A DNA stretch of 64,000 nucleotides from Sulfuricurvum sp. (GCA_030694265.1 JAUXYP010000020.1:36862-100861); one strand, 5' to 3'; numbered from the stretch's first letter, positions 4,762-49,119 are shown. The notes: generated from the sequence alone by a model not told the origin. Numbers and translations: made by a program.

Positions 4762-4770
4762 AGGGTACCT

Positions 4771-8240: not shown

Positions 8241-8254
8241 TACAAAGCCGTTCA

Positions 8255-8280: not shown

Positions 8281-8293
8281 AAAAGCAGATAGA

Positions 8294-9877: not shown

Positions 9878-9926
9878 TCTAACTCCTTAAAATTTTCAAT
9901 ATTTATGTAATAAGCTTACTATTGTC

Positions 9927-27434: not shown

Positions 27435-27824
27435 ATGGAACATTACAACGTCGCAAATCCTTATTTCGGGGTATTTGTACTGTTTGTTATTACGTTTGGA
27501 GCATTTTATGCGACGACGGTATTGGCACGCTTAGCAAGCCGCGCATTAGCGGCCAAAGATACAGAAAAATTGAAAATGTCGCCGTATGAATGTGGTCCAG
27601 AGGTTACTCGACAACCGAACCGAATTTCGACACAGTTTTATCTATTTGCACTTTTGTTTTTGCTATTTGATGTGGAAATCGTCTTTATGTTCCCATGGGC
27701 AATTGATTTTAAATTGCTAGGTTGGTTTGGTTTTTTTGAGATGCTAATGTTTATTTTATTATTAGCAATCGGTTTTGTTTATGCATGGAAAAAAGGAGCA
27801 CTCGAATGGCACAACATCAAGTAA
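27435..27824 (+). CDS. nuoA: NADH-quinone oxidoreductase subunit A
   Basis: 129-aa protein with 3 TM helices, and YECG and FDVE motifs. Confidence 0.9.
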
Positions 27825-28315
27825 ATTATTTAAAAGACGGCGGTCTTCCCGTCGCTTTGACGACGATTGATAAAGTCGTAAACTGGGGTCGTTCAAATTC
27901 TATTTGGGCGCTAACCTACGGTTTGGCATGTTGCGGTATTGAAATGATGGCTTCAGGGGCATCTCGTTATGACTTTGACCGTTTCGGTACGATCTTTCGT
28001 GCTTCTCCGCGTCAAGCTGAGCTTATGGTTGTAGCAGGAACATTGACGAAAAAACACGCAGAATTTATTCGACGTTTGTATGATCAAATGACAGAGCCAA
28101 AATGGGTCATCTCTATGGGTTCATGCGCAAATACAGGAGGTATGTTTAATACCTATGCAACTGTGCAAGGGGTTGACCGCGTTATCCCTGTGGATTTGTA
28201 TCTTCCAGGATGTGCCCCTCGTCCGGAGACATTGCAGTATGCGGTAATGATGCTACAGCAAAAAATCCGTAAAGAGCCTGCCTCTCGTGCTCAAAAACCA
28301 AAAAGGTTGATGTAA
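27806..28315 (+). CDS. nuoB: NADH-quinone oxidoreductase subunit B
   Basis: N2-cluster cysteines ([26 protein letters not shown]). Start chosen at MAQHQV with AAGGAG 7 nt upstream, overlapping the nuoA end. Confidence 0.9.
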
Positions 28316-29121
28316 TGAGAGCCTATACTCCAAAAGATGACGTACAAAAAAAGTCGTATTACACGGACCGCTTTTGGGTTGCACCGCAAGTAGCTAAATC
28401 GGAAGTTAGCGACGATGCAGTATTTGCAGCCGATTTAGAAGCGATTAAAGCAAAATTTGATGTTTTGGATGCGTATATCCAAGTAGAACAAATGGTGGTC
28501 GTTATTAATGCAAATGATAACTATGCTGTTCTTGAATTATTGAAAAATGATCGTGAGTACACACAACTTTCAGAAATGAGTGCGATTGACTGGTTGGCTC
28601 AAGAGGGAAAATTTGAGATTTTCTATCAAATATTGAGTATGGCTAAGCGTAAGCGCATTCGTATCAAATGTAAAATTGATGAAAAAGAAGCCATCCAAAG
28701 TGTTGAAAAGCTTTTCCGATCTGCGGATTGGTCAGAGCGCGAAATGTACGATATGTTCGGGGTTGTTGTTAATAATCATCCCTTCATGAAACGTATTTTG
28801 ATGCCGGAAGATTGGGAAGGTTTCCCATTGCGTAAAACCTATCCATTACAAGGGGATGAGTTTGCGGCATGGTATGAAGTAGACCGTATTTTTGGCAAAG
28901 AAGCCAGAGAAATTATCGGGCCTGAAAACCGTGATCCTGCGCGTATTGATCGTTATGATACAAAGCGCTTCTCACGTTTGGGTCACGAAGTACCATTTGG
29001 TGCAGACATCAGCCAGGGTGAACCGGATACACCACTTGTTTATCAAGAACAAGAGGGTGTGTTCATGATCGATAAATTTGACGCAGAGAAATCCGTTGTG
29101 ATCTCTGATCGTCACCGTTAA
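28315..29121 (+). CDS. nuoC: NADH-quinone oxidoreductase subunit C
   Basis: 268-aa ORF with the [14 protein letters not shown] and PLRK.YP motifs of the 30-kDa subunit. TAATG overlap with nuoB. Confidence 0.9.
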
Positions 29122-29131: not shown

Positions 29132-30358
29132 ATGCAACAATCCAATCGTCTTAGACCGTTTTTTGAAAACATTACCTTTGACCGAGTCGATAATGAGATG
29201 ATCCTGAACTTCGGTCCACAGCATCCATCGGCACACGGTCAGCTGCGTCTTATGCTTCATATGCAGCAAGAGCAAATCACTAAAGCTCATCCGGATATCG
29301 GATATCTTCACCGCGGTATGGAGAAGATGGCTGAAAATATGATTTACAATGAGTTCATGCCGACCACCGACCGTATGGACTATATTGCATCGAGTTCAAA
29401 CAATTACGGTTTTGCTCTTGCCGTGGAAAAATTGATCGGCCTTGATGTTCCACGTCGTGCGAAAGTCATCCGTATGCTTCTTTTGGAAGTAAACCGTTTG
29501 ATGTCTCACCTCTTTTGGTTGGCGACGACAGCATTGGATATCGGTGCGATGACGGTATTTTTGTATGCTTTCCGTGAGCGTGAATATTTGATGGACTTGG
29601 TCGAAGACTACTGCGGCGCACGTTTGACACATGCAGCTATCCGTATCGGTGGCGTTCCATTGGACTTGCCGGATAATTTCATGGCTGATTTGCGTAAATT
29701 TTTGGACAAATTGCCGGAAAATATCAAAGACTACGAAGACCTATTGGACAAAAACCGTGTTTGGTTGATGCGTATGGAAAATGTCGGTGTTATTTCTAAA
29801 GAGATGGCATTAAGCTGGGGTTGTTCAGGGGTCATGCTACGCGCATCCGGTGTTGAATGGGACATTCGTAAAGAAGAGCCATATGAACTGTACGATGAAG
29901 TAGAGTTCAATGTCCCTGTTTCGGATAAGGGTGACAACTATGCACGTTATAAGCTATATATGGCAGAGATGCGTGAATCCGCAAAAATCTTGTACCAAGT
30001 TGCAGATATGTATGAGGGAACATCGACTGAATTGATGGCGCATGCTCCACAATACATTTCAGCACCAAAACTGGATATTATGACGCAAAACTACGCGTTG
30101 ATGCAGCACTTTGTCCTTGTGACGCAAGGGATGCGTCCACCTGTGGGCGAAGTGTATATTCCGACGGAATCTCCTAAAGGAGAGCTTGGGTATTACATCA
30201 ATAGCCAAGGCGGACCGTACCCATACCGTCTAAAATTACGTGCGCCATCGTTCTGGCATACGGGTATTTTGACAGATTTGTTGCCTGGGCATTATATCCC
30301 AGACGTAGTATCCATCATCGGGACGACTAATATCGTCTTCGGTGAAGTAGACCGTTAG
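29132..30358 (+). CDS. nuoD: NADH-quinone oxidoreductase subunit D
   Basis: 408-aa ORF with [12 protein letters not shown] and GYLHRG.EK, and C-terminal GEVDR. Confidence 0.95.
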
Positions 30359-30368: not shown

Positions 30369-30599
30369 ATGAAACGTTATGATTTACGTCACCTAAAGGG
30401 TGCTTTTTACGACCGCATGGGTGAAATTATGCAAGAAGAAACATCAACCAAAGAAGTGTTGATTTTTTTATTCGAAATTGGTGATTTTACACCAATTCAA
30501 CAGAGTGCTGATTTGGTTAAGGCCAAAGGATATGAGCTAATGAATTCGCTGAAATTTAATGAAGCCGACTGGACCATAGTGGTCAAACATAAGGAATAG
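30369..30599 (+). CDS. Small cysteine-free protein occupying the nuoE position
   Basis: 76-aa ORF with AAGGA RBS, tightly packed between nuoD and the next gene. It has no Cys, so it cannot be a NuoE 2Fe-2S protein. It is the positional equivalent of the small non-NuoE ORF in C. jejuni and H. pylori nuo operons. Confidence 0.6.
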   Translation: MKRYDLRHLKGAFYDRMGEIMQEETSTKEVLIFLFEIGDFTPIQQSADLVKAKGYELMNSLKFNEADWTIVVKHKE

Positions 30600-30601
30600 T
30601 C

Positions 30602-32638
30602 GTGAGCAAAGTCTATTTTTCCACATGGCGCGGGGAGCAGATCAATAACATCGGCAAACCCGAAGAGCAGTGGGAAGTATCTGCGTATAATTTGCCTGCA
30701 GATTATAATGAGCATGCCCATTCAAAAGCGTTTATCGGATGGGATGGTCTAGCACTGTTTAATCCCGATGTTGATGTGGTTCGTCTTGCTACGGAATACG
30801 CAGCACAGTATCAAGTCTATTCAGAAGCATGCGGGCGTTGCGCGCCAGGGCGATGGGGCGGACGTATTTTATACGATCTGTTAGATAAAATTGCTCGCGG
30901 TGAGGGTGCTATATCCGATATGGAACATCTAAAAGAAGTTTCAAAAACGATGCAGGAAACGTCAAAATGCGAAATTGGGAAAACTGTTCCCACTCCATTA
31001 CTTGATTTGATGCACCATTTTGAAGCAGAATTTATGGCGTGCATCAATGAGCAAAAAGCGTCAAAGCACTATCATATGCAAGATACCAACTATATTGCAA
31101 AGATTACGGCTCCATGTATGGATGCGTGTCCTGCACATGTCGATATTCCGGCGTATATTGAAGGTGTTCGTGATTTACGTTTTGATGATTCGTTAATGGC
31201 TACACGTCAAACGATGCCATTAGCGCATACCTGTGGGCGTGTTTGTCCTCATCCATGTGAGACAGAGTGCCGTCGTACCAATCTTGATGAGCCAATTTCA
31301 ATCATGGAGCTTAAGCGTTTGGGCGCCGATTACGAAACCGATCATGGGTTTGGATTTTTTCATCCAACTGAGCAAAAACCGTTAAATGGTAAAAAAGTGG
31401 CGGTCATCGGTTCTGGTCCTGCAGGATTAACAGGTGCCTATTACCTTGCACTTGATGGCGTTGAAGTTGACGTTTATGAAGAACTTCCGGTTCTTGGCGG
31501 TGAAGTTGCTGTTGGTGTACCTGAATACCGTATGCCGATTGATCGATACAATCAAGACATTGAAGCGGTACGTGATTTAGGGGTTAAATTTATAACTAAC
31601 ACACGTGTTAGTGCAGATATGATGCGTCAATTTGAAACCGATTACGATGCGATTTTGGTAGCAACCGGAACCCGTATTTCTAAAAAAGTGTATTGTGAAA
31701 ATGAACGTGCAGACATCCAAGGATATTGGGGTGCGATTGATTTTCTGGATAAAGTCAACTTGGAAGTTAAATATGGCATTATGGTCCCAGAAGCGGATCA
31801 GAAGCAGCACATGCTGGATAAAGACTATGTTGATTTAACAGGCAAAACCGTTGTGTGTGTCGGTGGTGGATTTACCTCTATGGACGTTGTGCGCTGTTCG
31901 ATTCGTGCGAATGCTAAAAAGGTAGTGATGATCTATCGCCGTGATGAAAAAACGATTATCAATAACACGACCTATGAAGAGTATCACGAAGCAGTAGAAG
32001 AGGGTGTAGAATTTATTTTCCACTCTGCTGTTGCAGAAATGCGTGATGAAAATAACGTATTAAAATCGTTATTGATTGATATGTTTGAACTGGTTCCTGA
32101 TCCTAATGGAGGACGTCCGACATTGGAAAAAATAGAGGGTGCATCATTTGAAATGGAGTGCGATTATCTGATCCCTGCGGTATCCCAAAGCGCTGATCTT
32201 AAATTGATTCCTGAAGAGTGGGAAATTGAACGTACCTCATGGGGGACGATCAAAACAAACGGTAAGGACTACATGACATCACGCAAAGGTATTTTTGCGG
32301 CAGGTGACTGTGAATACGGACCAATGACGATTGTTAATGCTGTTGGTCAAGCAAAGCGTGCTTCATCGGTTATGTCTCGTTATGTGAATGACGGCCAAAT
32401 CACCTTGCTTGATGATGAGATTATGGAAGATCACTTACGTAAGCTCAAAGTTTATGACAAGAAAGAAAAAGTAACCGGTTGGCTGCCGGGTCTTCCACGA
32501 GAACACAGTGAAGTTCTCACAGTTGATGAGCGTAAATATAATAATAAAGAAGTGAAATACGGCTTTACACAAGAGCAGGCAATTTCTGAAGCAGAGCGCT
32601 GTATGCGTTGTTATTATATCGCGATGGTCGCACATTAA
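30602..32638 (+). CDS. Fusion protein: NuoF-type 4Fe-4S domain plus GltD/NfnB/SfrB-like FAD- and NADPH-binding oxidoreductase
   Basis: The N-terminus has EACGRCAPGRWG...SKCEIGKT...FEAEF (NuoF C-terminal domain pattern). It is followed by a Cys-rich region (CMDACPAHVDIP, CGRVCPHPCETEC), a dinucleotide fold (VAVIGSGPAGLTGAYYL) and a second fold (VCVGGGFTSMD ... IYRR). GTG start with AAGGAA RBS. Confidence 0.85.
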   Translation: MSKVYFSTWRGEQINNIGKPEEQWEVSAYNLPADYNEHAHSKAFIGWDGLALFNPDVDVVRLATEYAAQYQVYSEACGRCAPGRWGGRILYDLLDKIARGEGAISDMEHLKEVSKTMQETSKCEIGKTVPTPLLDLMHHFEAEFMACINEQKASKHYHMQDTNYIAKITAPCMDACPAHVDIPAYIEGVRDLRFDDSLMATRQTMPLAHTCGRVCPHPCETECRRTNLDEPISIMELKRLGADYETDHGFGFFHPTEQKPLNGKKVAVIGSGPAGLTGAYYLALDGVEVDVYEELPVLGGEVAVGVPEYRMPIDRYNQDIEAVRDLGVKFITNTRVSADMMRQFETDYDAILVATGTRISKKVYCENERADIQGYWGAIDFLDKVNLEVKYGIMVPEADQKQHMLDKDYVDLTGKTVVCVGGGFTSMDVVRCSIRANAKKVVMIYRRDEKTIINNTTYEEYHEAVEEGVEFIFHSAVAEMRDENNVLKSLLIDMFELVPDPNGGRPTLEKIEGASFEMECDYLIPAVSQSADLKLIPEEWEIERTSWGTIKTNGKDYMTSRKGIFAAGDCEYGPMTIVNAVGQAKRASSVMSRYVNDGQITLLDDEIMEDHLRKLKVYDKKEKVTGWLPGLPREHSEVLTVDERKYNNKEVKYGFTQEQAISEAERCMRCYYIAMVAH

Positions 32639-32648
32639 AGGGGGATGG

Positions 32649-34898
32649 ATGATTAATTTTACAATAAACAACCAACCCGTAACTGCCGCCAAAGGGGAAA
32701 CCATTCTTCAAGCAGCACGAAAGGCGGGGTTTTATATTCCAACCATGTGTTATTTGGAAAAAACAATGCCATGTGCATCCTGCCGTTTGTGTGTGGTGGA
32801 GGTAAATACCACTGATGGTTTGATCTTGAGCTGTCAAACACCTCCGACGCAAGGGCTTGAAGTGACCCTTGAATCAGAGCGTTTACAACTGGAACGCACC
32901 AATATTATGCGTATGTACGATGTCAATCATCCGTTAGAATGCGGTGTTTGCGATAAGTCCGGGGCGTGTGATCTTCAAAACAAGACATTAGAATTTAATA
33001 TTGACTCTCAACACTTTACGGCCAAAGAACAGCCTCGTAAAATTGAACATTGGGGATTGATTAACTACGATCCGTCATTATGTATTTTATGTGAGAAGTG
33101 TGTCCATGTCTGTAATGAGATTATCGGGGACGATGCTATCACCTTGCAATTTGGGGGATACAAATCGGCGGTTATTCCTAAAAACAGTGAGAAACTCGAT
33201 TGTACGTTCTGTGGTGAGTGTATTGCTGTTTGTCCTGTCGGTGCCTTGGTGAGTTCTGATTTTCAGTACAAAGCAAACTCGTGGGAACTCTCACCCGTTC
33301 CTGCAACATGTGCTCACTGTTCGGCAGGTTGCTCATTGACGTATGAAGTAAAACATACGTCGATTGCTACGGGGGATGCAGAGCGTATCTATCGTGTGAC
33401 GAACAATTTTGAATACGCGACGCTTTGCGGTGCCGGACGCTTTGGATTCGATTACGATGTGCAAGCACAAAAAGATACCGCATTATTTGATAAAGCAGTA
33501 TCCGCACTTCGAAACGCAAAAGCGATTCGCTTCAGCTCCATGATCACGAATGAAGAAGCACTTATCTTACAGCGATTAAAAGAGACATTGGGATTGAAGC
33601 TTTTCAATGAAGAAGCAAGAGCGTATCAATCTTTCATGCAAGCGTATGGATCTATAAGCGGAAAAGCTACGTTTGGCGGTACTTTGGATGCGATTGCTCA
33701 AAGTGATGCGATTATTATACTGGGCGGACGTATTACGACGGATAACCCAGGAGTTCGTTACGCGATGACCACTGCTGCACGTCATAATGGAGCCAAAATC
33801 ATCTATATGCATCCACTTGAGGATGCTTTGATGCAAAATACGGTGACACAGTTTGTGAAATATGAAGCAGGATCAGAAGAGGGAGTGATGGCAATGTTGG
33901 CCAAAACTCTCTTGGCAGATGCCGATTTAAGTGACGAATTTAGAGCTTTTTTCAATGAGTTGGATGAAGGTTACTTGTGCGCAGAAAGCAATGTTGGCGA
34001 TGAAGAGTTTGCGCGTATTGAAAAATCACTGCGCCGTGCAAAACGTAAAATATTGGTGATTGGTTCGGATGTATTGAATCATGATTGTGCGCAAAATATT
34101 GCACGTTTGGCTGCATTGGTTGAGACTTATACCGATTTTTCTTTGGTGGTTATTCCTCAAAATGTTAACACGGTAGGAGTCTCGCTTGTTTGTGATTTGG
34201 ATTGTGATGAGAATATTGCAGGTGTAGTCGGCTATAACGCACGCGGCGACTTTGTTATGGGATCATTCGTGGAAAGTGATCTTGTGCTCCCTGCGTTGAA
34301 CAGCCAAGAAGGGACATTCGTAAGTATGAACTATCAGCTTTTACCTACGAACGTTGCGATTAGATTTGAGGGATACTGCTTGAACGATCTTGCTAATGCA
34401 GTTGGCTTACGTATGGCCAATACGATTGATTACACGGCGCAGTTGCCAATGGCAAAAGGATTTAATGGGACAGCCTTTGATCATCTTGGAAATTTTTACG
34501 GATCATTGGGTGAGGATAACCGAGGGTATCAGCTCGAAGTCAGCGATGTAGAAGTCAACGGTACGGTGGCTAGTGTGAATGCTTTGCCGGAATTTAACGG
34601 CACTGTTATTTATCGCTGCAATCCCGTCAATCAATTCAATAGTTATACGGCACGTACAACGCAGCTAGAACGTGACAGTGCGCTTCATGGCTCAGCGCAA
34701 TTTGCTGCTGCTGCCCGTATTAGTGACGGTGACACAGTGGAAATTCAATCAAACGGATCTGTTGAGGTGCGAACATTTTTCCTTGATAGTAATCTTAAAG
34801 GAACGATCGCATTATCTCCGACATTTGACACGGAATTTGGAGTTATGAATGAAAGTTACCGCTTTGAGAAAATTAAAATTATGAGGGTGGGTAGTTGA
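32649..34898 (+). CDS. NuoG-like Fe-S subunit, extra copy (749 aa)
   Basis: 2Fe-2S motif C-x10-C-x2-C-x13-C, HPLECGVCDKSGAC, CILCEKCVHVC, CTFCGECIAVCP and CAHCSAGC, followed by a molybdopterin-oxidoreductase-like domain. Confidence 0.85.
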   Translation: MINFTINNQPVTAAKGETILQAARKAGFYIPTMCYLEKTMPCASCRLCVVEVNTTDGLILSCQTPPTQGLEVTLESERLQLERTNIMRMYDVNHPLECGVCDKSGACDLQNKTLEFNIDSQHFTAKEQPRKIEHWGLINYDPSLCILCEKCVHVCNEIIGDDAITLQFGGYKSAVIPKNSEKLDCTFCGECIAVCPVGALVSSDFQYKANSWELSPVPATCAHCSAGCSLTYEVKHTSIATGDAERIYRVTNNFEYATLCGAGRFGFDYDVQAQKDTALFDKAVSALRNAKAIRFSSMITNEEALILQRLKETLGLKLFNEEARAYQSFMQAYGSISGKATFGGTLDAIAQSDAIIILGGRITTDNPGVRYAMTTAARHNGAKIIYMHPLEDALMQNTVTQFVKYEAGSEEGVMAMLAKTLLADADLSDEFRAFFNELDEGYLCAESNVGDEEFARIEKSLRRAKRKILVIGSDVLNHDCAQNIARLAALVETYTDFSLVVIPQNVNTVGVSLVCDLDCDENIAGVVGYNARGDFVMGSFVESDLVLPALNSQEGTFVSMNYQLLPTNVAIRFEGYCLNDLANAVGLRMANTIDYTAQLPMAKGFNGTAFDHLGNFYGSLGEDNRGYQLEVSDVEVNGTVASVNALPEFNGTVIYRCNPVNQFNSYTARTTQLERDSALHGSAQFAAAARISDGDTVEIQSNGSVEVRTFFLDSNLKGTIALSPTFDTEFGVMNESYRFEKIKIMRVGS

Positions 34899-37390: not shown

Positions 37391-38398
37391 ATGGATGTAG
37401 CATTTATCATCGAGACAATTGTTAAAATTGTTGTGATCTTATTGGTTTTCTCAGCTCTTGCGGGTTTTGGGACCTACTTTGAGCGTAAGGTTCTTGCATT
37501 TATGCAGCGTCGTTTGGGACCAATGCACGTCGGTCCGTATGGATTGCTTCAAGTGGCTGCAGACGGAATTAAACTCTTTACAAAAGAGGACATTATTCCA
37601 CAAAATGTTGTCAAGCCAATCTTTAAATTAGCACCGGTAATAACAGCTGCAACCGCATTTATGGCAGCAGCTGCGATTCCATTTTGGCCTGAGTTTACCG
37701 TTTTTGGATACACCGTTCATCCTATCGTATCGGATATTAATGTTGGTATTTTGTACGTAATGGCGGTCATGGCAATTGGTCTTTATGGACCACTTCTTGG
37801 CGGTATGGCATCTGCGAATAAGTTTTCGTTAATTTCTGCGGCGCGTAGTGCTGCGGTATTTATTTCATACGAAGTTATTACAGGACTTGCGTTATTGGCA
37901 CCTTTGATGATGGTGGGTTCATTGTCCTTAATTGATATCAATAATTATCAATCAGCCGGGATTACCCATTGGATTGCTTGGTCACAGCCGGTTGCTTTCA
38001 TCTTGTTTTGGATTGCTGCTTTTGCGGAGACAGGGCGTACACCGTTTCATCTTGTTGCGAATGATCATGAAATTATCGACGGGTTTGGTACAGAGTACTC
38101 AGGAATGAGATGGGGTCTCTTCTTTATCGGTGAGTATGCCAACATGTTCTTTATTTCGTTTGTTATGGCAATCATCTTTTTGGGTGGATACGGTGATGGT
38201 TCGATTGCCGGAGCATTTCAGTTATTGATGAAAGTAGCGTTCTTTTTCTTCTTTTTCTTATGGACAAGAGCGGCATGGCCGGATATTCGACCTGATCAGT
38301 TGATGTGGTTGTGCTGGAAAGTGTTGATGCCAATTGCAGTGCTCAATGTTGTTATAACAGGTGCTGTGATTTTGTTTAAACTAAAAGGGGGCATGTGA
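37391..38398 (+). CDS. nuoH: NADH-quinone oxidoreductase subunit H
   Basis: 335-aa polytopic protein with [14 protein letters not shown] and [11 protein letters not shown] motifs. Confidence 0.95.
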
Positions 38399-39018
38399 TG
38401 CACGTAGAACCGTTTACAGATCGTAACGTGAGTGAGCATAGCGCTTATTACTATGTCGATATCGAAAACTATCCGGTTACCGGATGGGATAAGTTCAAAC
38501 AAGTGGTAAAGCGCTCTCTTAAAGGTGAACTCTTTGTGGGCTTGTGGGTTGTCATGCGTGAGATGATCAAATTTGACATTCATACTGTGAAATATCCGCT
38601 TGAAAAGCTTCCGATCGGTCCGCGTTATCGTGCCGTTCACAAGCTGTTACGTTTATGGGAATCAGGCTTTGAGCGTTGTATCGGATGCGGCTTGTGTGAG
38701 AAGATTTGTATCTCTGATTGTATTCGTATGGATACACGTATTGATGAGAATAGCCGTAAAGAAGTAACGGAGTACAGCATTAATCTTGGACGCTGTATTT
38801 TTTGCGGATACTGTGCTGAAGTATGTCCGGAACTGGCGATTGTTCATGGCGGTCGTTATGAGAATGCGTCTGAGCAACGTGCACACTTTGTTATCAAGGA
38901 TGACATGCTCACACCACTTGATTTCTTAACAGCAGGACAGCAAGAAGAGTATCCTGGTTTTGGTGCAATTACCCCACATGAGGACGAGCGTGTTAGTAAA
39001 ACACCGCTCGCCTATTAA
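38398..39018 (+). CDS. nuoI: NADH-quinone oxidoreductase subunit I
   Basis: Two ferredoxin-type motifs, [11 protein letters not shown] and [12 protein letters not shown]. The ATG overlaps the nuoH TGA (TGATG). A GTG at 38395 is an alternative start. Confidence 0.9.
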
Positions 39019-39028
39019 GGAGATATGA

Positions 39029-39616
39029 ATGTTTGAAGCAATTGCTTTTTATCTGTTTGCGGCATTAACGATTGGAATGTTTACGATTACGGTTATGACC
39101 TCACAAGCGTTGTATGCACTTACCGCAATGGCTGCGGGAATGATTTTTATCTCAGCCTTCTTCTTTATACTAGGGGCTGATTTTTTAGGTGTCATTCAAA
39201 TTATCGTTTATACAGGTGCCGTAATGGCATTGTATGCATTTGGTATGATGTTTTTTGATACAACACGCACGCTGGTGGAAAAACGTGAAAACCCGAGAAC
39301 TATTTTCTTATTGGGTGTTATAGCAGCTACTTTGGTAGTGTTTATCGTCATTTCACCCATTATTTCTACCCATTTGGAAGCACGTTATCCAATTGAAGCG
39401 GCTCTGGGGAATTCTCAAGCTATCGGATTGATTTTATTCACCAAGTTTTTGGTTCCATTTGAAGTTGCAGCGGTTATGTTATTGGTTGCAATGATAGCGG
39501 GTATCGTATTAGCAGGTAAGAAAATGGATAAATCACTGACGTTAATGGCTGAGGAAGAGATTGCACTTATGAGTGCAGCGCAGACAAAGCCAGATAGCCA
39601 AGAAGGAGCACACTGA
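39029..39616 (+). CDS. nuoJ: NADH-quinone oxidoreductase subunit J
   Basis: 195-aa hydrophobic protein in the canonical operon position. AAGGAG RBS. Confidence 0.9.
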   Translation: MFEAIAFYLFAALTIGMFTITVMTSQALYALTAMAAGMIFISAFFFILGADFLGVIQIIVYTGAVMALYAFGMMFFDTTRTLVEKRENPRTIFLLGVIAATLVVFIVISPIISTHLEARYPIEAALGNSQAIGLILFTKFLVPFEVAAVMLLVAMIAGIVLAGKKMDKSLTLMAEEEIALMSAAQTKPDSQEGAH

Positions 39617-39921
39617 TGGAAATAACATTAGCGCACTACTTAGTACTTTCAAGTGTACTATTCGCGATTGGTCTCATTGGGGTTATGCGTCGTAAAAATT
39701 TGCTTATGCTATTTTTTGCAACGGAAATATTATTGAACGCAACGAACATTGGTTTTGCAGCCATTGCGCACTTTCATAATGATTTAACAGGTCAGATGTT
39801 TGCCTTCTTTGTTATTGCAATCGCTGCGTCTGAAGTTGCGGTTGGACTTGGCTTATTGATCGTATGGTACAAGCGTACGGGCAAGATCGACCTAGATATT
39901 ATGACATCGATGCGAGGGTAA
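39616..39921 (+). CDS. nuoK: NADH-quinone oxidoreductase subunit K
   Basis: 101-aa protein with 3 TM helices and the conserved membrane Glu residues (ATEILLNA; AASEVAVGL). TGATG overlap with nuoJ. Confidence 0.9.
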   Translation: MEITLAHYLVLSSVLFAIGLIGVMRRKNLLMLFFATEILLNATNIGFAAIAHFHNDLTGQMFAFFVIAIAASEVAVGLGLLIVWYKRTGKIDLDIMTSMRG

Positions 39922-39924
39922 GCA

Positions 39925-41814
39925 ATGGAAATCTATTTATACATCGCACTTTTTGCGCCGTTAGCAGGTTCACTGTTTGCTGCACTTTTTGGTGCTTCAC
40001 CTAAGACAAGTCTAACGGGAATCGTTGCCTCTGGATTGTTATTTATTTCATTTGTCAGCAGTGCTATATTGCTCAATTATGTGGTGGCGGGGCATACCGT
40101 TCACGTAGAAATGATGACGTGGATTGCTACGGGAGATCTTTATATCCCGTTTGGATTTGTGGTTGATCAAGTAAGTGTCGTCATGATGATGGTGGTCAGT
40201 ATTGTTTCTACAATCGTACACATTTACTCTGTGGGCTATATGGATCATGACAAAGGGTTCAACCGTTTTTTCTCATACCTTTCAGCATTCGTATTTTCGA
40301 TGATGGTATTGGTTATGAGTGATAATTTCCTGGGTCTGTTTATCGGATGGGAAGGGGTCGGTCTGTGCTCATGGCTGCTGATTGGTTTTTGGTATCATAA
40401 AGAATCGGCTACTTGGGCTGCCAATGAAGCATTTATTATGAACCGTATTGCTGACTTGGCCATGTTGATTGGTATCTTTATTATTTACTGGAATATCGGT
40501 TCATTGCAGTACGATGTCGTTTTCTCTGATATAGCGAATTTACCAATGCCAATTATTACATGGATCGGTATTTTCCTCTTTATCGGTGCGATGGGGAAAT
40601 CGGCGCAGTTTCCGCTACATACATGGTTGGCGGATGCAATGGAAGGTCCTACTCCCGTTTCTGCTTTGATTCATGCAGCAACGATGGTAACCGCCGGTGT
40701 TTATTTGGTCGTTCGTGCGAATCCAATTTACGACCTTATTCCAGAGGTTGGTACGGTGATCGCCTCATTAGGTGCGTTTGTTGCTATGTTCGCGGCAACT
40801 ATGGCATTGGTCAACCGTGATATGAAACGTATTATTGCGTATTCAACATTGTCACAATTAGGTTATATGTTTGTGGCAGCAGGTTTAGGTGCGTACTGGG
40901 TAGCATTGTTTCATCTTATGGCCCATGCTTTCTTTAAAGCATTGCTATTTTTGGGTGCAGGTAATGTTATGCACGCAATGCACGATGAATTGGACCCGTT
41001 TAAAATGGGTGGTTTGAAAAAACCGATGAAATGGACATGGATTCTTATGACGTTGGCATCGGTCGCATTGGCGGGTATCTATCCATTAGCCGGATTCTTT
41101 TCAAAAGATCTGATTTTGGAAGTGGCATTTGTAGAGCAACACTATATTCTTTACAGTGTATTGCTAGCGACTGCCGGTTTGACCGCATTTTATTCATTCC
41201 GTCTTGTTGCCTTGATCTTCCACGGAGATGAGCGACATTTAGAACACGGAATTCATCCGCACGAAGCGTATAACTTTATGTTGTATGCTATGGCGCCATT
41301 GGGAGTGCTGGCAGTCATTGCTGGTATGGTCTTTAAAACACCGTACTATGAAATGGTTACCCAGCTTTTACCGGCGATTGAATACCATATTCATAACCAT
41401 ACGACATTTTGGATTATGACGATTGGGACGCAATTATTTGTCATCGCAGCCATCGCTTATGCGTATAAAAAATACGCAAAAGCGGTTAAAGTGGATGCAA
41501 AAGTGGAGTCAGGCTTTTTCTATCAACTGCTATATAACCAATACTACATTCCAAAACTCTATGATGAGTTATTTTCGAAGCCGTACCGTGAGCTGTCGAA
41601 AATTGCATGGAAACAAATTGATCTTAAAATCGTTGATGCAACGGTGGATGGAATCGCGAATGTCATCTATCGTACGGGTGAAAAAACACATACCATGCAA
41701 AACGGTAACCTATCGAGCATGTTGCGCTGGATGGTTATTGGTTTAGTGGTTTTATTGGTACTCGCTATCGCATTTACTGTTGGATACAACGCAGTAACAA
41801 TGCGGGCGATGTAA
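39925..41814 (+). CDS. nuoL: NADH-quinone oxidoreductase subunit L
   Basis: 629-aa antiporter-like subunit with WEGVGLCS, GKSAQFPLHTWL and ALIHAATMV motifs. Confidence 0.95.
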   Translation: MEIYLYIALFAPLAGSLFAALFGASPKTSLTGIVASGLLFISFVSSAILLNYVVAGHTVHVEMMTWIATGDLYIPFGFVVDQVSVVMMMVVSIVSTIVHIYSVGYMDHDKGFNRFFSYLSAFVFSMMVLVMSDNFLGLFIGWEGVGLCSWLLIGFWYHKESATWAANEAFIMNRIADLAMLIGIFIIYWNIGSLQYDVVFSDIANLPMPIITWIGIFLFIGAMGKSAQFPLHTWLADAMEGPTPVSALIHAATMVTAGVYLVVRANPIYDLIPEVGTVIASLGAFVAMFAATMALVNRDMKRIIAYSTLSQLGYMFVAAGLGAYWVALFHLMAHAFFKALLFLGAGNVMHAMHDELDPFKMGGLKKPMKWTWILMTLASVALAGIYPLAGFFSKDLILEVAFVEQHYILYSVLLATAGLTAFYSFRLVALIFHGDERHLEHGIHPHEAYNFMLYAMAPLGVLAVIAGMVFKTPYYEMVTQLLPAIEYHIHNHTTFWIMTIGTQLFVIAAIAYAYKKYAKAVKVDAKVESGFFYQLLYNQYYIPKLYDELFSKPYRELSKIAWKQIDLKIVDATVDGIANVIYRTGEKTHTMQNGNLSSMLRWMVIGLVVLLVLAIAFTVGYNAVTMRAM

Positions 41815-41824
41815 GGAGCTGTTG

Positions 41825-43372
41825 ATGCAAGAACACATTTTATCGATCTTAATTTTCTTTCCGGCATTGGCAGCAATGCTCGGTTTCATCGTTCATAAAG
41901 ACAGCGCGAGAGCTTATGGTATTACCGTTGCTGCTATTGAATTTTTTCTCTCTTTGTTGTTGTGGAATCTGTATGATCCAATGACATCTGGAATGCAGTT
42001 TATGGAAAAAGCACCCCTTGTTTCGGCATTCGGTATCAATTACCTTGTCGGTATCGATGGCATTTCTTTGTTCATCATCGTGCTATCAACTTTTTTTACA
42101 ATGATCGGAATTGCCTCATTAACGGAAACACGTCGTGTTAAAGATTTAATTATCACTTTGCTCTTTTTGGAAATGACAATGGTCGGCGTTTTTGCGGCAT
42201 TGGATGCGATCATCTTTTATGTATTTTGGGAACTTTCGTTGATTCCAATGTTGTACATTATTGGCGCATGGGGCGGACCGCTTCGTATTTACGCATCAAT
42301 CAAGTTTTTCTTATATACCTTTACGGGTTCACTCGTCATGTTGGTGGGTATGCTGTTTATGGCGTATTTCTATTATCAAGCGACAGGACAGTGGAGTTTC
42401 TCACTTCTCGAGTGGTATCGCTTGATTTTACCGCTTAATTTTCAACTTTGGCTGTTTGCAGCATTTTTTGTTGGATTTGCAATTAAAGTACCGATGTTTC
42501 CGTTTCATACATGGTTGCCATATGCCCATGGACAAGCTCCAACAATCGGTTCGGTTATCCTAGCAGCAATATTACTTAAAATGGGTACCTATGCGTTTGT
42601 CCGTTTTTCATTGCCATTATTTCCGGATGCAGCTGTTTTCTTTATGTTTCCGATTGCGGCACTTGCGATAATCATGATTGTTTACACGGCAATGGTAGCG
42701 TATGCACAAGAGGATATTAAGCAAGTCGTAGCGTACAGCTCTGTATCGCATATGGGAGTCATTGTACTAGGTACCTTTGCACTCAATGTTGAGGGTATAA
42801 GCGGATCTATTTTCTTGATGATTGCGCATGGAGTTGTTTCTGGTGCATTGTTCTTACTTGTAGGAGTGATTTATGATCGTCGTCATACCAAACTGATGTC
42901 TGAATTTGGTGGACTCGCATCCGTGATGCCGCGTTATGCCACTATTTTTGGAATTATGATGATGGCATCCGTCGGTTTGCCATTGACGATTAATTTTGTC
43001 GGTGAATTTTTGAGTTTACTTGGATTTTACAAACAATCTCATTCGTTTACGCTAGTAGCAGGAACGGCTATTATCGTAGGTGCTATTTATATGCTTAGTG
43101 CGTATAAAAAAATGTTTTTTGGTAATGTAACTAAAGAAGAAAATAAAAATTTAAAAGATGTGAATAAAACCGAATTATTAGCATTAGTACCATTGGTCGT
43201 TATTACGATTTGGCTAGGTGTTTATCCAAAACCTATTCTAGAACCTATTAGTAACAGTGTAGAATCTATCGTGCAGTTAATGCATGACAAAGCACAAACA
43301 AAAGAAGCACAAGCTCGTATCCCGAATCTTAGCAATCCAGAAGCTAAGAATTCACAACAGGAGACACACTAA
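41825..43372 (+). CDS. nuoM: NADH-quinone oxidoreductase subunit M
   Basis: Antiporter-like subunit with FPFHTWLP and SHMG motifs. The ATG at 41825 lies 6 nt after AAGGAG. A TTG at 41822 is an alternative start. Confidence 0.9.
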
Positions 43373-44877
43373 TGTTAGAACCTATCAATGTTTCTCTAGC
43401 GTCACTGAACATCACAACATTAGCACCGATGCTAATTGCTATCGTTGGTGCACTTACAATTCTTTGTATTGATTTGATCAAAGGAGGGCTTCATAAGTCT
43501 TTCTATGTCATGGTGAGTTCACTTTTTTTATTGCTTGATCTGGGAACAGTTATCGATTTTGGCAATATTTTTCTAAAAAATGGGCCTGTATTGGGTATGT
43601 TTGATATGATGCTCATTGATGGTCTTGCCATCATGGGTCAGATTATTATAGTAGCCGGTTCAATGTTGTTTATTCCATTGGCATTAACGTCGAAACGTTT
43701 TCATGAGTATAATTACCCTGAGTATTTTGCTCTCTTTTTGTTCATGATTGCAGGCTTCCAATTTATGGTGGCAACGGATAATTTGATTTTGATTTTTGTC
43801 GGACTTGAAACAGCATCATTGGCATTGTATGCATTGATTGCTTTGCACAATCGGTCTAAATCATTTGAAGCGGCGGTGAAATACTTCACAATGGGCGCAT
43901 TGGCTGCAGGCTTTTTTGCTTTCGGTTCTATGATACTGTATGCAATTACTGGTTCGATTGAGATAAATCAAATCGCCTCCGTGTTGGCGGGCGATCATTA
44001 TGCAAATATCGGGTACGTTTTAGTTGCGGTATCCTTTATGTTAGCTGCATTTGGATTCAAACTTTCAATGGTTCCTTTTCATACATGGACTCCCGACGTA
44101 TATGAGGGTTCCAGTGCTGCACTGGCTGGATACATGTCCATTGTCCCTAAAATTGCAGGGTTTATTGTTGCCATGCGTTTGTTTGAATTCTTGGTTCACA
44201 GCGGTGTGGTATGGCTGCAAGTTATCCTTTACATTGCGGTTGTAATTACCATGACGGCATCTAATATTTGGGCTATGGTACAAACGGATGTTAAGCGTAT
44301 GTTAGCGTACAGCTCGATTTCTCATGCCGGTTTTGTAATGGCGGCTATTTTGATAGGGACTACCCAATCCAATACAGCACTTTTCTTATACTGGGCTTTG
44401 TTTAGCTTTACCAATCTTGGTGCCTTTACGATGTTATGGGTAAGCCGTCAGAAGAATCTTCTCCCAGGTCAGAGTTCAGACCATCCATTTGAGAAGTTCT
44501 CCGGATTGATTAAGACAATGCCGATGGCAGCAATTATGATGGGCTTATTTATGCTTTCTCTCGCAGGTATACCGCCGTTTGGGTTGTTTTGGGGTAAGAT
44601 TTATATCATAGCTTCAGCAGTAACAGGCGGATATACGGTTCTCGCACTAATCATGGCGTTGAATTCGGCGCTTGCTGCGTATTACTATCTAAAGTTAATT
44701 GTATTTATGTTTATGAAAGAGCCTGTTATCGGGTATGAGAAGTATTATTTGACGAATGCATCAGCTTCACTTAAAACAATTATCGGGGTTGCAGCTATTG
44801 GGACAATCTTTGCTGTATTTGCCGTTAACCCACTTTTAAAAGTCATAACATTATTCGTGTATAATAGCGGTTACTAA
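43372..44877 (+). CDS. nuoN: NADH-quinone oxidoreductase subunit N
   Basis: 501-aa antiporter-like subunit with [18 protein letters not shown] overlap with nuoM. Confidence 0.9.
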
Positions 44878-44898: not shown

Positions 44899-47256
44899 TT
44901 GAAGCACTGGTTACTACTTTCCCTGTGGCTGCCTCTGTGTGCTTTGGATCTGTCGATCCAAAGCGGCAAAGAAGAGCAAAAGTCTTACAGTATCTTACAT
45001 TTGAATGATGTCAGTAACTTTACATGTTTGCCAACACGTAATGATTATAATGAAATAGTACGTATTGAATGTAAAATTCCAAAAGCATCTTCATCCACCT
45101 TTTCTCCTATTAATAATGCACATTTCACGGTTGAGTATAAAGCAGGTTCATTTGGGTATACGATTCTTATTACCCCAAAAACAAAAGTAGCACTTTATGC
45201 TGATAGCTTTGATTTGCGCAAAGATCCCCAAATATATGTTTCTGCTCTTAAACCAACTAAGCGCTGGAGCGTATTAGGGTATACAGACACCATTCCATTG
45301 CTTGGTTCTGAACAAAAGAAGTCTGATACCCTTAACCTACCTATACGCAGTGCTAAAGAAACATATCCTTATGTGGGAGGATTGGATTTAAAGGGAAATC
45401 CAATCAAGATGAGCCGTATTCAAGATGTTAATGACTATATGGAACTCAAAAAAACGTATAAAAATGAGGAGTATTCCAAAACATTATCCTTGGCAAAAAA
45501 AACATTGGACAAATATCCAAATACAATTTTCAAAAATGAACTGTTACTGTATCAGATTCGGGCATTGCATTTCCTAGATGAAAACGAGCAACTTTTACCG
45601 TTAGCAAAACAATTTATTCGCCAGTATTCAGGAGATCAAGCAATTGCAGAGGTATTGGCATATACAGGCGATGCTTACAGTAAGATAGGCCAAACTGGCG
45701 ATTCCGATTATTTTTACAAGCGGCTTTTTTCGGAATACGCAGACAGTCCATTTGCTACAAAAGGGATGTTTTTAAAAGCGCAGCAATTAGAAGTTTCAGG
45801 AAAGCCAAAACCGGCAGCTCAATATTATCGTCAAGTATTAGAGAAAACAAAAGATGTTGATTTGGCATCTGCCGCGGCATTTAAACTGGCAAATATTGAC
45901 ATTGGATTTGGTCACTTGGATAAGGCCAAAATCTACATAGATAAAATAGTGCGTGCTCATCCAGATTATTTTAGTAAAGAACGGGAACAATCGGTGCGTA
46001 TGATAAATACGTACACTCAAAATAAAGATTCAAAAACAGCGGCGAAGATAACCCTTTGTTTGATGGAAAAAAGTCTTAAAAAATCAGATGAGCATCAAGC
46101 TTTGCTTAAAAACTTGGGATTGCTCTACGCGGCTTCAGGGGAAAAAGAGAAAGCGTTGGAGCGTTTTGATGAGTATCTTAAACTTTATCCTTATGGTGCG
46201 GGAATAAACGAGATCAAGCATGCAAAAGATGGGCTGTTTTTCGAAAAGAGTGAACCAAAAGGGCAAGAGGGGATAAAAAAATACAATGACTTGATCGATC
46301 GCTATGGAAATGATGCGGTTGGGCAAAAAGCATTGTACAAAAAAGCACAGCTTTTATTCAAAGAAGAAAAATTTCAAGAAGTGCTTGATATAGAGAGCGA
46401 TCTGTATCGATTGAATACTAAAGACTTCCCGGATATTAATACGATTATCGGACAAAGTGCCATTGCCTTAACCAAGAAAAAACTGCAAGCGCTAAAATGT
46501 TCGGAAGCGATAACATTGCATACAATGTATCGTATCAAGCTACAACCTCAATGGGATGGACTGACGTTTGATTGTGCACTGAGAATGGGTAATTTTCCAG
46601 TTGCTAAAAAGATTGCCATGCCGCATCTAAAAGCCGCTACTATTGCAGAGCGTCAGGTTTGGCTTTCACGATTGGCAAAAGCTCATTTTGCGCTTGGTGA
46701 GTACAAAGAAGCAATACGTTCAGGTAAAGAAGCGGTTGCACTATTGGAAGCACAAAAAAATCCGCCGCTAAATGATGTCTATCGGACGCTTTTTGATGCG
46801 GCAGAGCGTCTGGGCGATGATGTAAAAATGATTGAGTATATAAAAGGGTGTGAGAGTGCATTCGGCACAGATTTTGCAGATATCGAACGCTATACGCAAA
46901 TGGTCAGTGTTGGATTAAAGCGAAAAGATGAAGTGCTAGTGCAAAATTATGCTAACCGAGTTGTTGCATTGCAAAATCGGACGAAAACCTATACCCAATC
47001 ACCCTTTATTGAGTTTACATTGGCACAGTCTCTGATCAATCAAGAGAAAAACAATGAGGCACTTCAAGTGCTTAAAAGTTTAAACGCGCAAAAGTTAACA
47101 CCTGAAAAACGATCACGCCAACAGTATCTTATGGGATCATTGGCTATGAAGCTTGGAAAGACAGCCCAAGCAAAAGCATCGTTTGGCGCGAGTATCAAAG
47201 CAGACGGAAAATCTGCATGGGGCAAACTTGCTAAAGATGCATTAGGGTTGCTGTAA
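44899..47256 (+). CDS. pflA: Periplasmic TPR-repeat protein, PflA-like (flagellar motor scaffold)
   Basis: 785-aa ORF with a signal peptide and multiple TPR-like repeats. Its size and its position directly downstream of nuoN match C. jejuni pflA. TTG start with AGGGGGA RBS. Confidence 0.6.
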   Translation: MKHWLLLSLWLPLCALDLSIQSGKEEQKSYSILHLNDVSNFTCLPTRNDYNEIVRIECKIPKASSSTFSPINNAHFTVEYKAGSFGYTILITPKTKVALYADSFDLRKDPQIYVSALKPTKRWSVLGYTDTIPLLGSEQKKSDTLNLPIRSAKETYPYVGGLDLKGNPIKMSRIQDVNDYMELKKTYKNEEYSKTLSLAKKTLDKYPNTIFKNELLLYQIRALHFLDENEQLLPLAKQFIRQYSGDQAIAEVLAYTGDAYSKIGQTGDSDYFYKRLFSEYADSPFATKGMFLKAQQLEVSGKPKPAAQYYRQVLEKTKDVDLASAAAFKLANIDIGFGHLDKAKIYIDKIVRAHPDYFSKEREQSVRMINTYTQNKDSKTAAKITLCLMEKSLKKSDEHQALLKNLGLLYAASGEKEKALERFDEYLKLYPYGAGINEIKHAKDGLFFEKSEPKGQEGIKKYNDLIDRYGNDAVGQKALYKKAQLLFKEEKFQEVLDIESDLYRLNTKDFPDINTIIGQSAIALTKKKLQALKCSEAITLHTMYRIKLQPQWDGLTFDCALRMGNFPVAKKIAMPHLKAATIAERQVWLSRLAKAHFALGEYKEAIRSGKEAVALLEAQKNPPLNDVYRTLFDAAERLGDDVKMIEYIKGCESAFGTDFADIERYTQMVSVGLKRKDEVLVQNYANRVVALQNRTKTYTQSPFIEFTLAQSLINQEKNNEALQVLKSLNAQKLTPEKRSRQQYLMGSLAMKLGKTAQAKASFGASIKADGKSAWGKLAKDALGLL

Positions 47257-48258: not shown

Positions 48259-49119
48259 GTGCAACGTCTTGCAAAACGACTCCGAGATTTTAATGAACTG
48301 GTTATGTTTCAGCATTCCGTATTTTCCCTTCCCTTTATTTTTATTGCGATGATAGTGGCCTCAAAAGGGTGGTTTGGATTTAAATTGCTGCTGCTTGGTG
48401 GTTTGGCTGCGATTAGTGCCCGTAATGCTGCAATGGGGTTCAATCGGTATGTGGATCGATCTTTTGATGTTATGAATCCACGAACTGCTGGAAGACCGAG
48501 CGTAGATGGCAGGCTTAGTGCGGTTTCTATTGCCATATTTACCGCTGTGAATGCGCTAGTTTTTATAGGGGTATCGTATATCATCAATGATTTGGCATTT
48601 TATGTAAGCGTACCGGTACTGCTTGTTTTATTGAGCTACTCCTATTTTAAACGCTTTAGCTTGATGGCGCACATTGTGTTGGGTATATCGCTTGGGCTTG
48701 CGCCAATTGCGGGAGCTATCGCGGTGAGTGCAACAATACCCCTGTGGTCAATTTGGCTTTCTATGGGTGTTGTCTTTTGGGTGGCAGGTTTTGATCTGCT
48801 CTATTCGCTTCAGGATATGGAGTTTGATCGTGATCGTGGTTTACACTCAATTCCTTCACGATATGGGAGCACGACAACCCTTCGTGTATCCTTATTTTTC
48901 CACGCGTTAACACTCGTTTTTTGGACGTTGTTTGTGGTCGAAGGCGGTTTGGGAATGGTTGCTTATTTGGCCATCTTGTTTTCGATTCTTATGTTAGGAT
49001 ACGAACATTATTTGGTTCGTTTGGATTTTACAAAAATTAACAGGGCTTTTTTTACAGTAAACGGGTATCTAGGATTTGTTTTTTTTGGATGTATTATTTT
49101 AGATAAGGTGATGGGATGA
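48259..49119 (+). CDS. UbiA-family aromatic prenyltransferase (quinone biosynthesis)
   Basis: 286-aa polytopic protein with the Asp-rich motifs NRYVDRSFD and DMEFDRDRG. GTG start preceding the family-typical L.DF.EL..F.H.VF.LPF segment. Confidence 0.8.
   Translation: MQRLAKRLRDFNELVMFQHSVFSLPFIFIAMIVASKGWFGFKLLLLGGLAAISARNAAMGFNRYVDRSFDVMNPRTAGRPSVDGRLSAVSIAIFTAVNALVFIGVSYIINDLAFYVSVPVLLVLLSYSYFKRFSLMAHIVLGISLGLAPIAGAIAVSATIPLWSIWLSMGVVFWVAGFDLLYSLQDMEFDRDRGLHSIPSRYGSTTTLRVSLFFHALTLVFWTLFVVEGGLGMVAYLAILFSILMLGYEHYLVRLDFTKINRAFFTVNGYLGFVFFGCIILDKVMG

Follow-up and report, generated by a model that had tools for sequence, protein, structure and literature searches.

A complex I operon of Sulfuricurvum sp. 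with NuoX, an SfrB-like flavoprotein, and two NuoG copies in the absence of NuoE and NuoF

Complex I of Campylobacter jejuni and Helicobacter pylori lacks NuoE and NuoF; in this epsilon-type Nuo, nuoXY stand in for nuoEF (PMC6682613), and the C. jejuni enzyme has been published as using flavodoxin. Another such operon has been described for Sulfurimonas denitrificans (bioRxiv 10.1101/717884). There, NuoEF are reported as non-canonical: NuoF is replaced by Suden_1824, which is 33% identical to NfnB of Thermotoga maritima and conserves the Tyr-Arg-Arg residues for NADPH and the cluster cysteines, and a short NuoG (Suden_1823) and a long NuoG (Suden_1822) are 36% identical to each other and similarly expressed. 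The same preprint describes the arrangement as universal among Sulfurimonas and Sulfurovum, points out that no pathway is known by which S. denitrificans could obtain NAD(P)H or reduced ferredoxin from quinol, proposes a reduction of NAD(P)+ and ferredoxin driven by the proton motive force (pmf), and credits Weerakoon and Olson (2008) with first noting the arrangement. Here, we analyzed the nuo operon in a 64-kb stretch of Sulfuricurvum sp. DNA (GCA_030694265.1, JAUXYP010000020.1:36862-100861), referred to below as the window, within which coordinates are counted. Four co-oriented genes, encoding proteins of 76, 678, 749, and 828 amino acids (aa), lie between its nuoD and nuoH. We propose, with a probability of roughly 0.6, that they belong to a non-canonical Sulfurimonadaceae complex I without NuoE and NuoF, in which NuoX (76 aa) is kept and a flavoprotein for NADP(H) with flavin adenine dinucleotide (FAD; 678 aa) together with a second NuoG (749 aa, G2) takes the NuoF position, adding an NADP(H) branch to an enzyme with a long NuoG (828 aa, G1).

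The operon comes from the same bacterial family as that of S. denitrificans. Both have this gene order, an NfnB-like flavoprotein with a Tyr-Arg-Arg (YRR) motif, two NuoG proteins of different lengths (about 36 to 44% identical), and no NuoE or NuoF; the genus differs but nothing else in kind, with the Suden proteins compared by their published description. The architecture and the idea of reverse electron transport to NADPH and ferredoxin are therefore already known, the latter as a published hypothesis, because the preprint gives almost point for point what a preliminary description of the Sulfuricurvum DNA had inferred. With the Nuo of C. jejuni and H. pylori (NuoX/NuoY, Cj1575c/Cj1574c and HP1264/HP1265), the locus shares NuoX, a long NuoG recognized by the model NF006305, and the lack of NuoE and NuoF, but it has the 678-aa NADP(H) flavoprotein and a five-cluster NuoG paralogue in place of the short NuoY. 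What appears to be new, relative to the papers searched, is the origin of the NuoF replacement of the reduced operons from a truncated G2, the repeated loss within Sulfuricurvum, and a three-cysteine N3-type site in the flavoprotein.

The genes between nuoD and nuoH

The intergenic gaps from nuoD to nuoH were 10, 2, 10, 3, and 2 nucleotides (nt), and purine-rich Shine-Dalgarno-like motifs (AAGGA, AAGGAA, AGGGGGA, and GAGGGTGGG) were found 5' of the four starts. The preliminary description had claimed co-orientation, ribosome-binding sites, and gaps of at most 10 nt for the three genes after nuoD, as well as a full set of nuoA to nuoD and nuoG to nuoN, in order and tightly coupled. Our map of open reading frames (ORFs) agreed on all of these points and reproduced its coordinates exactly. 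A Pfam search of all ORFs of at least 150 aa found no NuoE or NuoF (Complex1_51K) domain in the 64-kb window, confirming within these 64 kb the absence that had been claimed. Separate transcription signals within the operon were considered and rejected, since neither promoter-like matches (45 observed versus 49.7 expected from shuffling) nor terminator-like matches (15 versus 16.2) rose above chance.

To what extent this gene order is conserved was examined in 80 genome loci that were fetched and in 80 metagenome loci obtained with NuoX (64 to 95% identical) as the anchor. As far as the contigs reached, the order nuoD-nuoX-678-G2-G1-nuoH was intact in all 80 genome loci, and every metagenome locus reaching nuoH had the four-gene form except for three (L109, L134, and L163; see below). 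In about 140 loci of Sulfurimonadaceae, the flavoprotein and G2 genes formed a pair with nuoX on one side and nuoG on the other, so that the survey of nuo loci suggested by the preliminary description returned an invariant order. Homologues of the 678-aa protein in Sulfuricurvum, Sulfurimonas, Thiomicrolovo, and metagenome-assembled genomes (MAGs) of Sulfurimonadaceae were 81 to 97% identical to it, with the closest genome locus in Sulfuricurvum MAG LH_M14 (97%) and those of Sulfurimonas isolates at 81 to 83%. Among species-representative genomes, 379 of 390 pattern matches encoded a relative. When representatives of clusters at 50% identity were used, the whole clade of the 678-aa protein fell into one cluster, and the next relative (P0121, 962 aa, 52% identical) was encoded in the same operon order with enlarged NuoG-like genes (L081, 6525-15605). 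This 962-aa flavoprotein has about 430 extra N-terminal residues without a Pfam match, and the two NuoG-like proteins at its locus are 1046 and 1012 aa long.

We then analyzed the 678-aa protein. Pfam assigned it the domains PF10589 (NuoF 4Fe-4S; residues 73 to 146), PF14691 (169 to 248), and PF07992 (264 to 584), and no NCBIfam model scored above its cut-off, the best being PRK12771 ('NAD(P)-binding protein'), below cut-off. Residues ~28 to 155 were homologous to the C-terminal four-helix bundle of NuoF, HydB, and NfnB, the domain of cluster N3. The NuoF model TIGR01959 matched only over model positions 294 to 409, and the Rossmann domain for flavin mononucleotide (FMN) and NADH was absent. 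For residues 169 to 671, the closest solved relatives were 9bov_A (E = 5.5e-79) and 8oh5_C (E = 5.5e-74), then 4ylf_B (E = 3.6e-69), after which came the glutamate synthase small subunits; 9n5u_A was also among the best, these four chains covering an E range of 1e-79 to 1e-69. The glycine motifs for FAD (G270-G275) and NADP (G421-S426) and Y445-R446-R447 were kept in 28 diverse sequences and 141 sequences of the clade, and they aligned with the solved NADPH-binding relatives. Seven cysteines expected to hold two [4Fe-4S] clusters in this module (C172, C176, C215, C219, C223, C667, and C670) were invariant. Its RCxxC pair is C-terminal; 9bov_A and 8oh5_C share this position, a circular permutation relative to NfnB and GltD. 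Free-standing relatives of about 650 aa (33 to 40% identical), named 'formate dehydrogenase (NADP+) beta subunit' by JGI, aligned over residues 1 to 677. One of them, P0122, is paired with an 859-aa protein that has a NuoG N terminus and molybdopterin domains, which is the SfrAB/FdhAB arrangement. By its architecture and by the names that the sources give to its relatives, the 678-aa protein resembles SfrB/FdhB, with an N3 domain of the NuoF type joined to an FAD-NADPH module of the GltD/NfnL type. Its earlier reading as a fusion of a NuoF 4Fe-4S domain with a GltD-like flavoprotein carrying a YRR motif was borne out by Pfam, the structure alignments, and motif conservation, and the homology search that had been recommended to see whether it is GltD/SfrB-like returned the SfrB/FdhB-like architecture.

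The comparison with known enzymes sets the protein apart in several ways. SfrB is GltD-like and SfrA is NuoG-like, and the SfrAB of Geobacter sulfurreducens is a soluble NADPH-dependent enzyme (PMC7483475). The beta subunits of SfrAB and FdhAB have the same fusion of a NuoF-type 4Fe-4S domain with a GltD-like FAD/NADPH module; unlike them, the 678-aa protein is embedded in the operon of a membrane complex I, has a NuoG duplicate as its partner, and has lost the third cysteine of N3. Nfn enzymes of the Bfu type (Csac NfnABC, 9bov; Sporomusa StnABC, 8oh5; archaeal Nfn-Bfu, 9n5u) gave the highest-scoring solved matches, with the same permutation, and in them, too, NuoG-like and NuoF-like elements occur together with an NADPH site of the GltD kind. 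However, those enzymes are soluble and have complete NuoF-type FMN and NuoE-type subunits, where bifurcation takes place, and both are absent here. The FAD/NADPH subunit of NfnAB/NfnSL (T. maritima 4ylf and Pyrococcus furiosus 5jca) is homologous and likewise has YRR and a pair of [4Fe-4S] clusters. The Sulfuricurvum operon, however, lacks an NfnA/NfnS partner, and its flavoprotein has the cysteine pair in the permuted, C-terminal position and an additional NuoF-type domain at the N terminus. With the canonical NuoEFG module the locus has in common the operon position, the Fe-S chain of NuoG, and the N3-type four-helix bundle, but it has neither the FMN/NADH Rossmann domain nor the [2Fe-2S] of NuoE, uses FAD/NADPH motifs instead of FMN/NADH, and encodes two NuoG proteins.

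A difference was found at the N3-type site. The motif of the 678-aa protein is CGRCAPGR, in which C77, C80, and the more distant C123 are present and Gly83 occupies the position of the third ligand (codons for C77, C80, and G83 at 30830-30850 and for C123 at 30968-30970). The solved NuoF, HydB, and NfnB relatives (9n5u_B, 7t2r_B, 8a6t_B, and 9bov_B) all carry CGxCxxCR (CGKCxxCR), and the four-cysteine N3-type site of the SfrB/NADP-formate dehydrogenase beta family is thus missing here. All 120 close homologues and all 141 sequences taken from the loci had Gly83. In a set of 27 diverse representatives of SfrB-like proteins, the residue was Cys in 20 and Gly in 7; in four of the five free-standing relatives with Gly, a CC doublet at the first position compensates, and P0126 and the nuo-linked proteins have no such doublet. 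Cys147 was tried as a substitute for the fourth ligand and rejected because it was present in only 118 of the 141 sequences. The site may therefore hold a cluster through a non-cysteine or partner-derived ligand, hold a [3Fe-4S] cluster, or be empty.

The 76-aa protein is free of cysteines, as had been claimed. It was a full-length member of PF16514 (E = 4.8e-38), matched PDB entry 2lxr (a 76-aa protein of H. pylori deposited as 'NADH dehydrogenase I subunit E' and solved by nuclear magnetic resonance) with an E value of 9e-25, and was 53 to 56% identical to HP1264 of H. pylori and to the homologue in L081. By these matches, it is the known epsilonproteobacterial NuoX, in the position of NuoE. 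The preliminary description had counted its gene as part of a three-gene insert; because NuoX (PF16514, like HP1264) is common to operons of the Helicobacter/Campylobacter type, it lies outside any insert.

Both NuoG copies passed the cut-off (591 bits) of the NuoG equivalog model NF006305. G1 scored 1162 bits over model positions 2 to 817 of 819, and G2 scored 877 bits in two stretches, with two deletions relative to the long form; the earlier label 'NuoG-like' for the 749-aa protein was thus right about the relationship and understated it. G2 and G1 were 44% and 40% identical in two blocks spanning their whole lengths (608 bits). In comparison, G2 matched the SfrA-like partner of a free-standing SfrB-like gene at 273 bits, over its N-terminal 490 residues only, and its molybdopterin domain was not significant (PF00384, 19.7 bits versus a cut-off of 24). 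An origin of the 749-aa protein from SfrA was therefore rejected, and these scores identify it as a tandem duplicate of the operon's own NuoG. Accordingly, the partner of the flavoprotein is a NuoG paralogue and not the molybdopterin protein of the SfrA/FdhA type that accompanies SfrB-family proteins, and the SfrAB-type module proposed earlier holds for the flavoprotein, which is SfrB-like, but not for the 749-aa protein. The G2 ligands for N1b, N5 (His and three Cys), N4, and N7 were conserved in 119 of 119 orthologues and those for an additional [4Fe-4S] cluster in 114 of them. The cluster ligands of G1 were conserved in 110 of 110 orthologues, except that the N7 cysteines were present in 103 and absent in 7. 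Judged from these ligands, both G2 and G1 are working Fe-S proteins. No structure of a campylobacterial complex I was found in the PDB set searched, where the best NuoG match was the Aquifex NuoEFG subcomplex 7q5y.

Reduced forms and the NuoY-type protein

The metagenome loci that departed from the four-gene form were informative about G2. In L109, whose NuoD is 96% identical to that of the window, NuoX was followed by a 287-aa protein (8235-9098) and then by G1. The 287-aa protein matched G2 residues 343 to 500 (65%) and 633 to 749 (53%), with no match to G1. L134 encoded a 245-aa protein (3270-4007) with the same two G2 segments at 34%; homologues of this type are named as Sulfurospirillum, Sulfurospirillaceae, Campylobacteraceae, and Arcobacter and carry the JGI label 'NADH-quinone oxidoreductase subunit F'. 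In L163, G2 took a 450-aa form (6052-7404) that lacked only the N-terminal Fe-S part. This last locus also has a 338-aa thioredoxin-reductase-like FAD/NAD(P) flavoprotein gene (4742-5758, minus strand) between nuoX and the 450-aa G2, and the protein could be a different NAD(P)-linked partner in the same spot.

The short proteins, which we call Y, belong to no Pfam family and matched only the C-terminal parts of NF006305. When the profile of the Y family was compared with that of G2 by hhalign, Y 2 to 243 aligned with G2 351 to 748 at a probability of 100% (E = 5.8e-72); the E value against the G1 profile was 4.8e-16. No solved structure in the PDB matched the Y profile with an E value better than 0.075. 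In a neighbor-joining tree (233 shared columns, 200 bootstraps), the L109 protein and P0399 grouped with the G2 of the window and its nearest relative (94%), P0461 and P0467 grouped with a different Sulfuricurvum G2 (98.5%), and monophyly of all short proteins received 0% support. From the profile alignment, the two-segment matches, and these groupings, the short protein is a truncated, cluster-less G2.

P0461 is encoded at L164, in Sulfuricurvum MAG GCA_030692765.1, where the upstream synteny is that of the window and the operon reads nuoD, 76 aa, 294 aa (9001-9885), 828 aa, nuoH. At the DNA level, window positions 30600-33620 and ~34012-34856 had no counterpart there. Within Sulfuricurvum there is thus a presence/absence polymorphism for the flavoprotein gene and the part of the second nuoG that encodes its Fe-S half, and by the tree they have been lost jointly at least two times in this genus. 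Since the NuoY-type proteins are truncated G2 and the truncation has recurred in Sulfuricurvum, the four-gene form looks ancestral to the reduced, Campylobacter-like form, and the direction implied by the word 'insert' in the preliminary description is probably wrong.

Searches started from the Sulfurospirillum-type Y protein or from a member in a Campylobacteraceae MAG gave no C. jejuni or H. pylori NuoY among the 120 matches listed per search. Position, size, and source label suggest that Cj1574c and HP1265 belong to the truncated-G2 family. Overall, we lean slightly toward the view that the four-gene form is ancestral to the Campylobacterota complex I without NuoE and NuoF, that the essential NuoY (Cj1574c/HP1265), a proposed entry point for electrons from flavodoxin, is what remains, without clusters, of the C-terminal part of G2, and that the reduction of an NADP(H)-coupled enzyme to one coupled to flavodoxin/ferredoxin only has been repeated and is ongoing in Sulfuricurvum.

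Natural fusions of a PF16514 NuoX domain with a short NuoY-type protein were observed in Campylobacteraceae MAGs (P0414-P0422, about 350 aa), and the joint action of NuoX and the NuoY-type protein is therefore suggested. In lineages with a truncated G2, the long NuoG can lack the N7 motif CxxCxxxC, which reads ANPHSSDC in L134 (4087-6462) and AAHSSDG in L163 (7397-9877).

Electron path and competing explanations

From the gene-level facts above, we infer that both proteins belong to the complex, and likewise the sequence of electron carriers, the specificity for NADPH, and the direction of flow. Hydride exchange would take place between NADP(H) and the FAD bound by the 678-aa protein, and electrons would pass from FAD through the two [4Fe-4S] clusters and the NuoF-type N-terminal domain to the [2Fe-2S]/[4Fe-4S] chain of G2, then from G2 to G1, NuoI, NuoB, and menaquinone. 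Docking of the N3-type domain on the [2Fe-2S] N terminus of a NuoG-type protein is plausible because SfrB/SfrA-type pairs, which dock in this way, are its closest free-standing relatives. The A1 [2Fe-2S] cluster of Csac NfnABC bridges to a NuoF-like core (PMC11829005). G2 would be anchored on the complex by its C-terminal domain, probably the complex-bound part because it is always kept when the rest of G2 is deleted. The core enzyme would retain an exchange with flavodoxin or ferredoxin, like that of C. jejuni. For an autotroph that oxidizes sulfur and H2 and uses the reductive tricarboxylic acid (rTCA) cycle, the important direction would be the reverse one, in which the pmf pushes menaquinol electrons to NADP+ (and ferredoxin), as is suggested by established physiology and by the proposal for S. 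denitrificans (bioRxiv 10.1101/717884).

Several points weigh against this proposal. The three-cysteine N3-type site, with no conserved substitute ligand, could mean that the wire from the flavoprotein clusters to G2 is altered or broken. The NADPH specificity of the 678-aa protein is read from the motif alone. The module is not essential to complex I, since both the flavoprotein and G2's Fe-S half are missing from some lineages of Sulfuricurvum. Finally, a literature search for work after the preprint found no biochemical or structural study of this complex.

Among the alternatives, the one that survives best, though unlikely, is a bifurcating or confurcating complex I, the hypothesis of the 2019 preprint, in which pmf-driven menaquinol electrons would be split within the peripheral arm so that NAD(P)+ is reduced along with ferredoxin in a fixed ratio, with the branch at the NfnB-like FAD or at one of the NuoG clusters. 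In its favor, T. maritima NfnB (4ylf_B), a homologue of the 678-aa protein, has an FAD that bifurcates, none of the seven cysteines for the low-potential [4Fe-4S] pair of the NfnB type varies, and two branches would be offered by the two NuoG copies. Ferredoxin and NAD(P)H are required at 1:1 by the rTCA cycle, and growth-yield modeling is compatible with this reading (bioRxiv 10.1101/717884). However, the closest solved relatives (9bov_A and 8oh5_C) use the homologous FAD as a plain NADPH site. In Csac NfnABC, that FAD domain is the NADPH entry, and bifurcation takes place at a flavobicluster of FMN, [4Fe-4S], and [2Fe-2S] (B1-FMN-C1) in NuoF-like and NuoE-like subunits (PMC11829005). In the Sulfuricurvum operon, of the NuoF part only the C-terminal bundle is present and NuoX has no cysteines, so the core of Bfu-type bifurcation is missing. 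As for the NfnSL type, an NfnL-like module is present, but no NfnA/NfnS-like second-flavin partner is encoded in the operon or elsewhere in the window. Lineages without the module keep the ferredoxin/flavodoxin-type core, which argues that ferredoxin coupling is independent of the module. Bifurcation, which the preliminary description had raised as possible, is thus neither required nor supported by homology, because the NuoF/NuoE-type core and the NfnA/NfnS partner are both absent.

It is also improbable that the 678-aa protein and the 749-aa protein make up a soluble, SfrAB-like enzyme of their own, an oxidoreductase between NADPH and ferredoxin or flavodoxin that is merely cotranscribed and feeds or drains the carrier of complex I. 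The nearest relatives outside nuo operons are free-standing two-gene enzymes, the G. sulfurreducens SfrAB is of this soluble kind, and operons without the module occur in the same genus. Against this, in the roughly 140 loci the pair is always part of the operon, flanked by nuoX and nuoG and separated by gaps of 2 to 10 nt, and G2 is a paralogue of the operon's NuoG and not SfrA. A separate enzyme would also make it hard to explain why the C-terminal third of G2 was kept in place after loss of the module in at least three independent lineages.

The existence of two complex I isoforms, one with the long NuoG linked to ferredoxin or flavodoxin and one with the short NuoG and the flavoprotein linked to NADPH, would fit the full-length collinearity of the two NuoG proteins and the retention of all on-path N1b, N4, and N5 ligands, but it is doubtful in view of the similar expression of both copies (bioRxiv 10.1101/717884) and of the conserved cluster-less G2 remnants that coexist with a full G1, which imply a role for the G2 C-terminal domain in a G1-containing complex.

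Operon map, flanking genes, and biological meaning

The features of the operon are listed in Table 1.

Table 1. Features of the Sulfuricurvum nuo operon, in window coordinates
Feature	Position	Strand	Basis
nuoA	27435-27824	+	PF00507 far above cut-off
nuoB	27785-28315	+	PF01058 far above cut-off
nuoC	28315-29121	+	PF00329 far above cut-off
nuoD	29132-30358	+	PF00346 far above cut-off; TIGR01962 at 587 bits
NuoX, 76 aa, NuoE position	30369-30599	+	PF16514 full length
SfrB/FdhB-like flavoprotein, 678 aa, NuoF position, GTG start	30602-32638	+	PF10589, PF14691, PF07992
N-terminal NuoF-type domain of the 678-aa protein, residues ~28-155	30683-31066	+	alignment to solved relatives
GltD/NfnL-type module of the 678-aa protein, residues 169-671	31106-32614	+	alignments to 9bov_A and 8oh5_C
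Short NuoG paralogue G2, 749 aa	32649-34898	+	NF006305 at 877 bits
G2 C-terminal region kept as a 245-295-aa NuoY-type protein, residues ~351-500 and 633-748	33699-34148, 34545-34892	+	hhalign, tblastn
Long Campylobacter-type NuoG G1, 828 aa	34902-37388	+	NF006305 at 1162 bits
nuoH, I, J, K, L, M, N	37391-44877	+	PF00146, Fer4 dicluster, PF00499, PF00420, three PF00361 proteins

No ferredoxin or flavodoxin gene was found by Pfam among the window's remaining ORFs of 150 aa or more, and the flanks contained housekeeping genes only. A 785-aa protein with DUF7494 and TPR repeats is encoded on the same strand (44899-47256), starting 22 nt past the nuoN stop, and its gene could be cotranscribed with the nuo operon. 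About 3.4 kb downstream of nuoN lies a gene for a UbiA-family prenyltransferase (48259-49119), which may act in quinone or heme biosynthesis, followed by two ORFs of about 172 aa without a Pfam match. The minus strand encodes, next to each other, two paralogues with DUF2393 (189 and 171 aa; 1971-3046). ORFs of 475 aa (14072-15499) and 160 aa (13512-13994) had no Pfam family at E <= 1e-5 and have housekeeping neighbors.

The Sulfuricurvum locus is no new kind of system; its arrangement is as reported for Sulfurimonas and Sulfurovum. Models of electron transfer between the flavoprotein and NuoG must account for the three-cysteine N3-type site. The surviving part of the second NuoG marks a likely attachment or docking domain and may explain the origin of NuoY in the Campylobacter and Helicobacter enzyme. 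If the four-gene form is indeed ancestral, the C-terminal domain of the short NuoG would serve the whole family as an anchor or for carrier docking, and the Sulfuricurvum lineages would provide natural variants with and without the NADP(H) module. Related Sulfuricurvum genomes of both kinds allow comparative physiology and genomics. Campylobacterota that use the rTCA cycle dominate carbon fixation in many sulfidic habitats, and this modified complex I is the leading candidate for how they supply NADPH and reduced ferredoxin from quinol-level donors.

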